A stretch of DNA of 47,775 nt from a phage (PZ445409.1); one strand, 5' to 3'. Positions 7,603 through 47,775 are shown, counted from the first letter of the stretch. The notes: generated from the sequence alone by a model not told the origin. Translations and numbers: made by a program.

Positions 7603-8022
7603 ATGGTAGATGAATTTTACACAGACGCTGAAATCATGCAGCAAATCGTAAAGTTAGCGCCGCCAATGCAACAAGTTGATCCCGATTTAATTGTGGCATG
7701 GATTGAGCTTGCTAAAGAGTTTGTTTGCAAAAAACGGTTTAAAAACTCATACCCGAAAGCGGTTGCGCTTTACACTCTTCACCTTATGACCTTAGACGGG
7801 GCAATGAAACAGGAAGGTGAAAGCGTAGAAAGCTATTCCCGCCGCGTTGCCTCGTTCACTCTGACTGGTGAGTTTAGTCAGACGTTTGATCGAATTTCTT
7901 CCGATACAAGCGGAAAGCAGATCCGACAAACGCCGTGGGGCAAAATGTACGAAGTGTTAAACCGTAAGCACGGTGGCGGCTTTGGCCTTGTGACTGGATT
8001 GCGCCGGAGATGCTGCCGATGA
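7603..8022 (+). CDS. head-tail connector/adaptor protein (positional)
   Basis: 139-aa ORF from ATG 7603 with GGAG RBS; position between capsid and tail genes. Confidence 0.4.
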
Positions 8023-15822: not shown

Positions 15823-15829
15823 AAAAATA

Positions 15830-15851
15830 CCCGCCTTGCGCGGGTTTTTTT
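15830..15851 (+). terminator. intrinsic terminator before J gene
   Basis: Hairpin cccgccttgcgcggg + T7. Confidence 0.6.
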
Positions 15852-15900
15852 GTGCATTTATAATGTGCAAACCAAGAAACAGCACAAAAGGTTAAAAGTC

Positions 15901-45982: not shown

Positions 45983-46052
45983 TTAAAAACGCATAGCCGT
46001 TAGAGCGCCTCAATCGCATTCTAACGAGCTATTTTTCTGGTAAGGTGATTTA

Positions 46053-46181
46053 ATGGATGAGTACAAACAACCTTCGCAGTGGTGCAAAGAGAAGCAAGAA
46101 GAGGCGCTGGAGCGCGGAGATGTGGAAGAAGCTATGAACTATTTCAAACTTGCGGAAGAATGGAAGGGGAGAGGATACTGA
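46053..46181 (+). CDS. hypothetical small protein (42 aa, not in ORF track)
   Basis: ATG 46053 with AAGGTG RBS; stop TGA shares its A with next ATG. Confidence 0.35.
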   Translation: MDEYKQPSQWCKEKQEEALERGDVEEAMNYFKLAEEWKGRGY

Positions 46182-46411
46182 TGTTCGGCATGAATGAGGC
46201 GCAATTCAACGCAGCTAAACGCCAGGCTAAAAAGTGCGGCGAGGCGATGAAAGCTGATGTGGAAAAGCGCGGGAAGTATGTTGATGAAGTAATGAAGGGC
46301 ATCATTGCAGAACACTACCAGCCAATCGCGCCAATGTTGACGATCACTCAATTCATTTGGCTATGTGGTTACTTGCGTGGACGTTGGGGGAACGCTTTCG
46401 ACAGGGAATGA
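46181..46411 (+). CDS. hypothetical protein
   Basis: 76-aa ORF from ATG 46181 (in frame with track ORF 46079-46411). Confidence 0.45.
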   Translation: MFGMNEAQFNAAKRQAKKCGEAMKADVEKRGKYVDEVMKGIIAEHYQPIAPMLTITQFIWLCGYLRGRWGNAFDRE

Positions 46412-46440
46412 TTGACAACTCTTTCCTGATTGGTTAGCAT
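46412..46440 (+). promoter_or_regulatory. sigma70-like promoter (TTGACA-17-TAGCAT)
   Basis: -35 at 46412-46417, -10 at 46435-46440; followed by 130-nt structured leader. Confidence 0.5.
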
Positions 46441-46573
46441 GGCGTCGTTTACATAAGAGCGGCTTAGTCCGAACGCGTGACGCGATAGTCACACAACAAC
46501 GGCGATATGCAGGAGGTTTTTGCAATGCAAAATAATCCGTAAGACGTATCGCCTTTTTTAATGGAGATTCAAA

Positions 46574-46807
46574 ATGATCAAATACAAATTAACCGTTTCT
46601 TTCCGTGATACCGTTATTCATCCTTTCTACAATAGCTTTGTTAACAGCTTTACAGTAGAAGTTACAGAGGATCAGCTAGACGGTGACGAAACTTGCATTT
46701 CTATTGGAAATGTTGCTTACCCGATTCACAACATTACCAGCATTAAGCGTGAGGTTGTCGCTGATGAATTACAAAGTGAAGATGAAGATCCGGCGAATGG
46801 GGCGTAA
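46574..46807 (+). CDS. hypothetical acidic protein
   Basis: 77-aa ORF with GGAG RBS downstream of sigma70-like promoter and leader hairpin; acidic C-terminus. Confidence 0.5.
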   Translation: MIKYKLTVSFRDTVIHPFYNSFVNSFTVEVTEDQLDGDETCISIGNVAYPIHNITSIKREVVADELQSEDEDPANGA

Positions 46808-46949
46808 TTGCCAATCATGCAAACAGGAATATGAATGCGTAGTTGATGCTCTTGATGAACTGGAAGCAGTAGCAAAAGCAAAAGAGCAATCGGGCGCTAA
46901 TCCTGAAACACATCAATTTTCAATTAACCTTGTGAGGGCTTTACAATGA
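46764..46949 (+). CDS. hypothetical small protein (start uncertain)
   Basis: 61-aa ORF in frame with track ORF 46683-46949; GAGG RBS before ATG 46764; overlaps upstream gene; CxxC...C motif. Confidence 0.35.
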   Translation: MNYKVKMKIRRMGRNCQSCKQEYECVVDALDELEAVAKAKEQSGANPETHQFSINLVRALQ

Positions 46950-47170
46950 TCGCATTATCTTTCTGCATTGGTTTTATCATGGCTATCATTATCTTTTCCG
47001 TTGTCATGCGCTTTGCTTATAAGTTCGTTATTAATAAAGGCTGGTACGCTTCTGCAATCTGGAGCGAAAAACAAAAGAAATGGCTTGTACGTGGTCAATA
47101 CCTGATGATCGGAAGCAAGATCCTAAATTCCATTCGAGCCAAAGATGGAAAAGTAAAATATACAGCTTAA
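46946..47170 (+). CDS. small membrane protein
   Basis: 74-aa ORF, ATGA overlap; N-terminal hydrophobic helix; followed by terminator 47177-47199. Confidence 0.5.
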   Translation: MIALSFCIGFIMAIIIFSVVMRFAYKFVINKGWYASAIWSEKQKKWLVRGQYLMIGSKILNSIRAKDGKVKYTA

Positions 47171-47176
47171 AAATTA

Positions 47177-47199
47177 CCCGCCGCACGGCGGGTTTTTTA
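47177..47199 (+). terminator. intrinsic terminator before terS
   Basis: Hairpin cccgccgcacggcggg + TTTTTT. Confidence 0.65.
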
Positions 47200-47248
47200 T
47201 TGCCCGTTGTCTGGTATAATCAGGCATCTAACCAAAGGAGGATTAATA

Positions 47249-47775
47249 ATGGCTAAAAATGTTGAGCCTGCTGTAAAGGCATTAAATTTCAAAGAGTTAT
47301 ACAATAAAACTTATGGCGATATTGTCACGCTAAACAACCGCCACAAGTACACGCCGGAACAGGTTTTTGATATGGCGATCCGCTATTTCACTTGGGCCGA
47401 AGAGAATCACATCCAGGCGGCTGAAACTGCTTCCTTTCAGGGTGACGTGTACGAGAGCAGAGTTTACAAGCCTCGCGTTTTCACGGTAAACGGATTCAGC
47501 TTGTATCTCGGCGTTACTGAGGCGGCTGTAAGCAAGTGGCGTAAAGAGCCTGGATTCTGCGATGTGATGGAGTTTGTTGATAAAGTAATTTACGAGCAAA
47601 AATTCCAGCTTGCGGCAAATAACATGATTAACGCTGGATTTATCGGTAAAGAGATCGGAGTGGAGAAGCCAGCAACAGTGAGCGTTGAAGCGAGCGCGGC
47701 AGCTAATGCAAGCATTGACGCAGTAACTGCCGATGAGGTGAAAGAGGCTGTGATTGATATTCTGGAGCAACTTTA
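47249..47775 (+). CDS. terS: terminase small subunit (3-prime end completed by nt 1 of window)
   Basis: ATG 47249 with AAGGAGG RBS; open to window end (175 codons + TA); HTH-like FSLYLGVTEAAVSKWRK; final TA plus nt 1 gives TAA overlapping terL ATG. Confidence 0.7.
   Translation, partial: MAKNVEPAVKALNFKELYNKTYGDIVTLNNRHKYTPEQVFDMAIRYFTWAEENHIQAAETASFQGDVYESRVYKPRVFTVNGFSLYLGVTEAAVSKWRKEPGFCDVMEFVDKVIYEQKFQLAANNMINAGFIGKEIGVEKPATVSVEASAAANASIDAVTADEVKEAVIDILEQL

Follow-up and report, generated by a model that had tools for sequence, protein, structure and literature searches.

A conserved RNA structure behind a conserved promoter near the small terminase gene of T1-like phages

Among the described RNA elements that come closest to the locus treated here are the nut sites of phage λ, which consist of boxA and boxB, and species 1 and 2 of phage T4 (rnaC/rnaD), stable small RNAs encoded with the phage tRNA cluster. 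The locus lies at positions 46412-46573 of PZ445409.1, a phage DNA of 47,775 nucleotides (nt) that is called the window in the following, and contains on the plus strand a promoter followed by an element that folds as RNA into three hairpins, H1, H2 and H3. Other related systems are the trp, his and leu leader attenuators, the put site of phage HK022 (PMC9378689) and the PR'-6S RNA-tR' unit of λ and the Stx phages. In Stx phages, early termination of the late transcript is reported to yield the small RNA StxS (PMC7547250).

With λ nut the element shares a conserved linear element and a hairpin of 5 bp whose small loop is rich in purines and of boxB size, both in the 5' leader of an operon. However, it has no boxA consensus on the transcribed strand, the loop of H2 differs from the GAAAA and GAAGA loops with which it was compared, and no arginine-rich N-like protein was identified. 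T4 species 1 and 2 resemble it as structured phage RNAs that are co-transcribed with tRNA genes, since the element heads a tRNA operon in phages of the phiEB49, ESCO41 and LF82-10 types. In the window, by contrast, no tRNA follows and the 3' end is set by a predicted terminator; we know of no sequence relationship between species 1 or 2 and the element. Like the leader attenuators (Leu_leader and others in Rfam), the locus places a promoter, a structured leader and a terminator before the first gene, but it has no conserved leader open reading frame (ORF), no covarying antiterminator and no match to an Rfam leader.

HK022 put (PMC9378689) is likewise a promoter-proximal RNA of ~50-70 nt with two stem-loops, a conserved structure and terminators downstream. 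The element has no homology to put, is present in one copy instead of two and contains an additional conserved distal hairpin. Neither of two covariance models, R1 built on the whole element and R2 on its 5' domain, gave a significant match in the whole HK022 genome. The PR' unit is similar in that a constitutive-looking σ70 promoter is followed within ~110 nt by a terminator and precedes late or packaging genes, that a short terminated RNA arises as product or by-product, and that read-through gives downstream expression. It differs in that the RNA of the element has three covarying hairpins and invariant loop motifs, that the terminator is missing in many members of the family, that neither a Q-like protein nor a conserved σ-dependent pause element turned up, and that the small terminase (TerS) gene has its own promoter.

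Three covarying hairpins on the plus strand

The RNA structure of the element is conserved among about 30 distinct relatives. A sensitive blastn search with 46380-46620 returned 130 phage records, of which 70 have 60-90% identity; twelve were aligned (A1). Alignment A2 contains the transcribed part of 15 distinct sequences of type A, the phages in which a long last hairpin is followed by a run of U residues (see below); it was assembled from the A1 relatives and from IMG/VR loci obtained by a DNA pattern scan, in which 34 of the 45 returned loci were chance matches. A3 comprises 25 distinct sequences from Warwick-, Hanriver-, Henuseptima- and Tlsvirus, T1, phiEB49, ESCO41-like and LF82-10-like phages and Klebsiella K50. 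In A2, 98.9% of the cells of the three helices hold standard pairs, and 8 of the 18 pairs have changed on both sides, values that none of 500 shuffles reached. When the 3' partners were slid by 1-3 columns, pairing dropped to 21-59%. Across A3, H1 and H2 are paired in 98.2% of the cells, with compensatory changes at 8 of 9 pairs. A model-based alignment of 27 further distinct matches gave 97.8% pairing, a figure that leans toward the structure because these sequences were fitted to the model. The G·U pairs fit only the plus strand read as RNA. Indels of 1, 2, 4 and 17 nt among the homologues leave no coding frame, that of a 54-codon minus-strand ORF included, and by this measure the region is non-coding.

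Most of the covariation among the three helices in A2 is carried by H3 (46501-46553, plus strand). Its basal stem, formed by GGCGATATG (46501-46509) and CGTATCGCC (46545-46553), has compensatory changes at five of nine pairs and 98.5% of its cells paired; A-U is replaced by C-G or G-C at one position, A-U by G-C at another and C-G by U-A at a third. The eighth pair is U·G in 13 of the 15 sequences and would be C·A on the opposite strand, so that the folded molecule is the plus-strand transcript. An earlier note on this DNA had listed a promoter, a palindrome, a stem, T6, AGGAGG and a mini-ORF, all of which can be read directly in the sequence. It gave the stem closed by T6 a length of 7 bp; stem and T6 are there, but the stem has 9 bp including the U·G pair. 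RNA structure prediction, named in advance as a check, folds this 9-bp H3 with a free energy (dG) of -19.7 kcal/mol and a pairing probability of 0.99 in the full RNA. On its 3' side the internal loop of H3 contains the conserved motif CCGUAAGA (46537-46544, plus strand). All lineages examined have the sequence C(C/U)(G/A)UAA on the 3' side of their last loop, and H3 of the window carries CCGUAAG. Together with the U6 tract at 46554-46559, which follows the GC-rich base of the 9-bp stem, H3 forms a predicted intrinsic terminator that is plausible in this phage.

H2 (46477-46492, plus strand) has the sequence GUGAC-GCGAUA-GUCAC, with a 5-bp stem and, in the family, a loop of 5-6 nt with the consensus (G/A)CG(R)(U)(A/U). 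At the DNA level it is the palindrome GTGAC-gcgata-GTCAC, which had been proposed to serve as an operator bound by a repressor. An exact 5-bp dyad downstream of a promoter would agree with this proposal, as would a DNA dyad that flanks the -10 region in some lineages. Arguing against an operator are compensatory changes at four of the five stem positions (99.2% of cells paired), G·U pairs, whose counterparts on the opposite strand would be C·A, and the conserved loop; the dyad evolves like an RNA helix. Compensatory changes together with the tolerance of G·U identify the palindrome, by comparison of the homologues, as RNA hairpin H2. Its stem is GUGAC/GUCAC in the window, GUGGC/GCCAC in Hanrivervirus, GUAGC/GCUAC in JohannLBurckhardt and several IMG/VR contigs, GUGAG/CUCAC in T1 and GCAUC/GAUGC in phiEB49 and LF82-10; GCAGC/GCUGC, GCGGC/GUCGC and CCAG/CUGG also occur.

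H1 (46460-46471, plus strand) is CGGC-UUAG-UCCG and has in this phage 3 bp and a C·U mismatch, whereas the stem of its relatives has 4-6 bp; the loop is not conserved. All four pairs show compensatory changes among the 25 sequences, with 96.9% of the cells paired, and a further alignment, A5, agrees. H1 and H2 are separated by the linker AACG(C) (46472-46476, plus strand), in which A, A and G are invariant and C is found in at least 90% of the A3 sequences. H2 and H3 are separated by a single-stranded, A/C-rich linker, ACAACAAC (46493-46500, plus strand), as seen in the alignment; at its position T1, Tls and phiEB49-type phages have 20-150 nt of extra hairpins.

Taken singly, the listed features do not exceed chance, and it is their conservation that makes them real. 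The z-score of the fold of the whole region is only -1.35, and a promoter scan found 14 promoter-like sites versus 14.8 expected in shuffled sequences. The exact palindrome of H2 is unique in the window, and the pattern with at most one mismatch has four matches versus 0.67 expected.

The note had further read AGGAGG (46511-46516) and the mini-ORF ATG CAA AAT AAT CCG TAA (46525-46542, plus strand) as a ribosome-binding site and a 5-codon leader peptide in an element of transcription attenuation or translation-coupled control. In its favor, AGGAGG is canonical and lies 8 nt upstream of ATG, and the ORF of five codons is located inside a hairpin. Both lie, however, in a lineage-specific apical insertion of H3 (46512-46538, plus strand) that folds as GGA/UCC plus UUUUGC-AAU-GCAAAA, thus within the loop of the predicted terminator and not upstream of an antiterminator. 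The 17-nt insertion was found only in Warwickvirus, JLBYU41 and Pocis76, while 10 of the 15 distinct sequences carry GGUUUUUACC instead. In Pocis76 the insertion, equal in size, folds into another hairpin (CAG-UUUCA-CUG) and lacks an ATG. The sole codon change, AAT to TAT (N to Y) in JLBYU41, pairs with a U-to-A change across the apical stem, which indicates compensation of the RNA structure. In the predicted fold, A and U of the AUG are in a 3-nt loop and G is paired in the stem. Given the absence from most homologues, the lack of ATG in Pocis76, the compensatory codon change and the buried AUG, the mini-ORF and AGGAGG are very probably fortuitous and very unlikely to encode a leader peptide.

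Promoter, distribution and 3' ends of the element

The promoter of the element is conserved and of the σ70 type (46412-46440, plus strand). It was read directly and was also found in the promoter scan: a -35 sequence TTGACA (46412-46417) is separated by 17 nt from the -10 sequence TAGCAT (46435-46440). TTGAC, TAnnnT and the 17-18-nt spacing are retained in every homologue despite indels in the spacer, and this pattern occurs once in the window. Judged by the distance to the -10 sequence, transcription would start at ~46447. The spacer contains the conserved octamer CTGATTGG at 46426-46433, which appears as CTGA[TGC][TC]GG in most homologous promoters, phiEB49 being an exception. The window has 11 copies of CTGATTGG versus 1.67 expected, and none of 100 shuffles reached 11. 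The other ten are located at 767, 4164, 15675, 19942, 28644, 30326, 32678, 32869, 37126 and 38116, mostly within genes; the octamer was considered as the mark of a shared promoter class and rejected because, though over-represented, its copies are mostly intragenic.

Some lineages have a DNA dyad that extends from just behind the -35 sequence to the +1 region, such as TTGACGGCGT...ACGCCGTGAA in Tls (locus L085, ~503-550), AACGATT...AATCGTT in G29-2 (L003, 631-680) and GGCGCT...AGCGCC in L026 (10416-10460). The dyad is inconsistent across phages and weak in the window; it could be an operator around the -10 sequence or form a hairpin in the read-through RNA of the upstream gene.

In alignments A2, A3 and A5, the RNA begins with a conserved single-stranded 5' segment, CGUUUACAUAAGAG (46446-46459, plus strand), for which the family consensus is CGU-N-N-AC-R-N-A-M-GAG; its G, U, A and C do not vary among 25 distinct sequences. 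T1 has a second promoter (L057 30347-30424; TTGACT...TATAAT) ahead of the exonuclease VIII gene ST29, and behind it lies CGTAAACGAAGGAG, a sequence similar to CGUAAACAUAAGAG, the conserved 5' motif of the element. The likeness may be a coincidence or reflect a shared signal in the initially transcribed region.

The element occurs as a single copy in a syntenic position. Model R1 found one copy in the window, with 103.7 bits, and one in T1, at 7617-7701, in the syntenic gap between ST58 and ST57 and behind a TTGACC-18-TAGTAT promoter. Further homologues were taken from TerS-anchored loci of IMG/VR and from the GenBank records of Tls, Sazh, Klebsiella K50PH164C1, phiEB49, ETEP102 and LF82-10. 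With model R2, 30 of 36 sources yielded exactly one match each, in every case on the strand of TerS; the matches in the TerS-anchored loci lie ~0.5-1.2 kb ahead of this gene. With the filters off, the element was also found in three of the six remaining loci. The order in the family consensus is promoter (TTGAC, 17-18 nt, TAnnnT), 5' segment, H1 (4-6 bp), AACG, H2, A/C-rich linker with or without extra hairpins, and last hairpin. The flanks vary; the downstream gene differs in A16a and BEK7, and both flanks differ in L034 and L038.

The 3' ends fall into several types. In type A (Warwick-, Hanriver- and Henuseptimavirus, Klebsiella K50 and several IMG/VR contigs), a long last hairpin with a dG of -11 to -20 kcal/mol is followed by U5-8; its pairing probability in the full RNA reaches 0.84 or more in 13 of 15 sequences (0.71 in Pocis76, 0.04 in L038). 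The U-tract is absent from Pocis76, T1, Tls and the Rogunavirinae/phiEB49-type phages, in which a 5-bp last stem with a CCGUAA loop precedes the ribosome-binding site by 10-20 nt. As far as this distribution allows one to judge, termination is a lineage-specific addition. By sequence, the window and type A have the promoter of their own and the Rho-independent terminator with a U-tail that characterize Hfq-type small RNAs; T1 and Tls do not. Likewise, a terminator before the regulated gene, as in leader attenuators, is present as a predicted 9-bp stem with U6 in type-A phages only.

In four lineages tRNA genes directly follow the element: Arg and Val in phiEB49, Trp and Arg in Sd1-like phages, Arg in ESCO41/ETEP102 and Ser in LF82-10/L071. 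There the element heads a tRNA operon. Such tRNA inserts are located at 689-842 of L088 (phiEB49), 650-727 of L089 (ETEP102), 751-838 of L058 (LF82-10), 2518-2672 of L077 and 2280-2357 of L084. A tRNA-Ser identity of the element itself, suggested by a BLAST link to LF82-10, was rejected, as it stems from an overlap of only 9 nt with the true tRNA that follows the element. A short motif, AUUCA, is shared by T1, LF82-10, L066, L038, L084 and L089, where it stands behind the last hairpin and ahead of the next ribosome-binding site or tRNA, for example in CAAUUCAAGAGG, AAAUUCAGGAAGG, CCAUUCAGGAG and CUCAUUCAAAGC; it may be a processing site.

Rfam 15 contains no family that matches the window at the gathering score; within 46300-46700 a search at E values up to 10 gave one irrelevant match on the minus strand, and a lax Rfam scan of five divergent variants returned only the downstream tRNAs. 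ARAGORN found no tRNA or tmRNA in the window or T1, and no blastn match that would point to mimicry of a host RNA was obtained in 5,426 E. coli genomes. The RNA family is previously undescribed and belongs among the structured leaders and small RNAs of phages.

Possible functions of the RNA

The region is probably, though with some reserve, a gene for a conserved structured non-coding RNA that doubles as the leader of a short operon. According to this model, host σ70 RNA polymerase would initiate at the 46412-46440 promoter and synthesize an RNA of ~113 nt (~46447-46559) that consists of the 5' segment, H1, H2, the A/C-rich linker and the long H3 with the invariant CCGUAAG. In the lineage of the window, H3 and U6 would stop part of the polymerases and free a discrete small RNA. 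The remaining polymerases, and those that read through from the upstream early genes, would express three small genes up to a terminator at 47176; there is no terminator between the upstream early genes and the element. The promoter scan revealed no promoter-like site between 46560 and 46574, which makes the three small genes (46574-47170) reachable only by read-through of H3. The invariant loops and linkers would form recognition surfaces for a partner, be it a protein, RNA polymerase or another RNA. In the tRNA-bearing lineages, processing of the downstream tRNAs by RNase P would free the element as a separate RNA. With termination confined to some lineages, the conserved function must reside in the RNA itself, whose independence of the genes behind it speaks against a regulator adapted to gene 46574.

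Several points weigh against a gene for a separate RNA. In T1 and Tls the last hairpin is followed by neither a U-tract nor a tRNA; unless processed, their RNA would stay a 5' untranslated region, and a purely cis-acting leader fits equally well. The interior of H3 is branched and 37 nt long, so that termination may be inefficient. Short and different between subfamilies (UUUACAUAAGAG versus UAGACAGACGAG), the conserved single-stranded segments are unlike what is expected of seed pairing with a conserved host mRNA. In the literature on transcription, small RNAs and antitermination of T1 and the Drexlerviridae, nothing specific to RNAs of T1-like phages was found.

T1 is a classic coliphage, and Drexlerviridae are among the most frequently isolated phages of enterobacteria. 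No non-coding RNA is annotated in any of the phage records examined here. The RNA, which extends from Warwickvirus to T1, Tls, Rtp/phiEB49-like and Klebsiella phages, offers an entry to the control of the packaging/late switch of T1-like phages or to RNA-based manipulation of the host. For annotation, the gap before the three pre-terminase genes is to be treated as an RNA gene or leader, and the mini-ORF should not be called.

The main alternative, possible though unlikely, is an RNA that acts in cis on RNA polymerase and would be the functional counterpart of λ nut or HK022 put. It would remain attached to the transcribing enzyme, by itself or together with a small phage protein or host Nus factors, and would make contact through the 5' motif and H2; the polymerase so modified would resist H3, the 47176 terminator and possibly many terminators of the late region. 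This would explain a single copy right behind a conserved promoter at the head of the packaging/late gene block, the indifference of the element to what follows it, tRNAs or ORFs, and the conserved loops and linear motifs, which suggest recognition rather than mere folding. H2 has the size of boxB, with a 5-bp stem and a GNR(N)A-like loop of 5-6 nt, and put is likewise promoter-proximal, ~70 nt long and composed of two stem-loops (PMC9378689). There are also terminators to be overcome, eight strong ones among the late genes (1-16 kb) of the window and at least 13 annotated in the T1 late region. Yet there is no sequence or structure homology to HK022, whose genome none of the covariance models matches, no boxA-like sequence on the plus strand, and no candidate N-like protein among the flanking proteins as compared with PHROGs and Pfam. 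The last hairpin and its CCGUAA remain conserved at distances of up to 150 nt from H2, which is more like an RNA of several domains than a nut or put site. In addition, TerS has its own extended -10 promoter, and TATAAT-like sequences follow other late terminators, so that a global antiterminator is not required. The more specific version, in which a new elongation regulator of the put or nut kind, unrelated in sequence to either, would carry polymerase past the late terminators and leave the self-terminated 113-nt RNA as its 'off' product, is still less probable.

An attenuator that depends on a factor is improbable and could apply to the type-A lineages only. Normally H1 would sequester GCCG, and H3 would terminate; a factor that opens H1 would allow its 3' arm to pair with the 5' arm of H3 around H2, which would weaken the terminator and raise expression of the three genes behind it. 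Type A retains the U-tract, and when 15 homologues were folded with the 3' arm of H3 withheld, the alternative GCCG:CGGC recurred with a probability of 0.4-0.8 in most of them and was kept via G·U pairs despite substitutions in BEK7, L062 and L026. The alternative is, however, a nearly invariant GC helix of ~4 bp that shows no covariation, and in the window it is reduced to 3 bp and a mismatch that corresponds to the C·U of H1. H3 dominates the full RNA with a pairing probability of 0.9-1.0 in most homologues. T1, Tls and the Rogunavirinae lack this relation but have retained H1, H2 and the last hairpin, so that it cannot be the ancestral function. Classical attenuation, as originally suggested for the locus, is not supported: the GCGATA repeat is not conserved, the 4-bp pairing without covariation is the only recurrent alternative, and T1, Tls and the phiEB49-type phages have no U-tract.

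Three other pairings were tried and rejected. The 3' arm of H3 could pair with GCGAUA of the H2 loop in the window, but its relatives have GCGGUU or ACGAUU; changes of the 5' GUUUAC in JohannLB, Jahat and Pocis76 are not compensated in GUAAGAC of the H3 loop; and kissing of the H2 loop with the CCGUAA loop would involve only 3-5 bp and is inconsistent between lineages.

It is very improbable that the hairpins act in the DNA, be it as single-stranded structures where replication originates or is primed, be it as a signal for packaging. Single-stranded DNA hairpins tolerate G·T wobble as well, and packaging genes are nearby. A promoter at fixed spacing directly upstream and a U-tract or tRNA genes directly downstream point instead to a transcript. 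The left end of the T1 record, 7.6 kb from the element, is a terminal repeat of 2.8 kb, and it is there, at the pac site, that T1 packaging presumably starts. GC skew follows gene orientation only and has no feature at the element that would indicate an origin. Attenuation by a translated leader peptide, combined with a repressor-bound DNA operator, is the least credible of all, since most homologues have no mini-ORF, the codon change in JLBYU41 restores structure, the AUG is buried and the dyad behaves as RNA. Of the structured leader once proposed for this locus, the conserved σ70-type promoter and a plausible terminator survive, and its functional interpretation, with an operator and a leader peptide, is mostly wrong.

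Genes and terminators around the element

The window is a nearly complete, circularly permuted genome of a T1-like phage (Drexlerviridae, Warwickvirus). A megablast search with 46000-47300 returned 100 phage records, the best being Escherichia phages atuna, vB_Eco-B1.2 and vB_EcoS-95 with 99% identity over the full length; phage Sip, an annotated close relative, belongs to Drexlerviridae, Tempevirinae, Warwickvirus. The element fills a 162-nt gap between genes, and its promoter begins directly behind the stop codon (46409-46411) of the upstream gene, a conserved gene for a protein of 76 residues (46181-46411) that belongs to phrog_303, a family of unknown function. Downstream on the plus strand are three small genes, at 46574-46807, 46797-46949 (a CxxC protein, phrog_2919) and 46946-47170 (DUF7299). 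Comparison of the flanking proteins with PHROGs and Pfam gave matches to families of unknown function and DUF7299 only. The TerS gene extends from 47249 onward. An ORF of 522 codons at 1-1569 continues in the reading direction of TerS and most likely encodes the large terminase.

The short transcription unit is closed by a strong canonical intrinsic terminator (47176-47199, plus strand), which was recognized in the sequence and is annotated also in phage Sip and T1. Directly behind it, both the sequence and the promoter scan place the extended -10 promoter TGGTATAAT of the TerS gene. Within 47176-47235 the terminator looks bidirectional, with ACCCGCCG-CACG-GCGGGT plus T6 ahead of this promoter. 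Eight strong canonical intrinsic terminators are found on the plus strand among the late structural genes within 16 kb, at 1597, 5337, 6213, 7243, 9886, 10615, 13694 and 15829. The layout of a terminator followed by TATAAT recurs between late genes, for example at 15829-15870.

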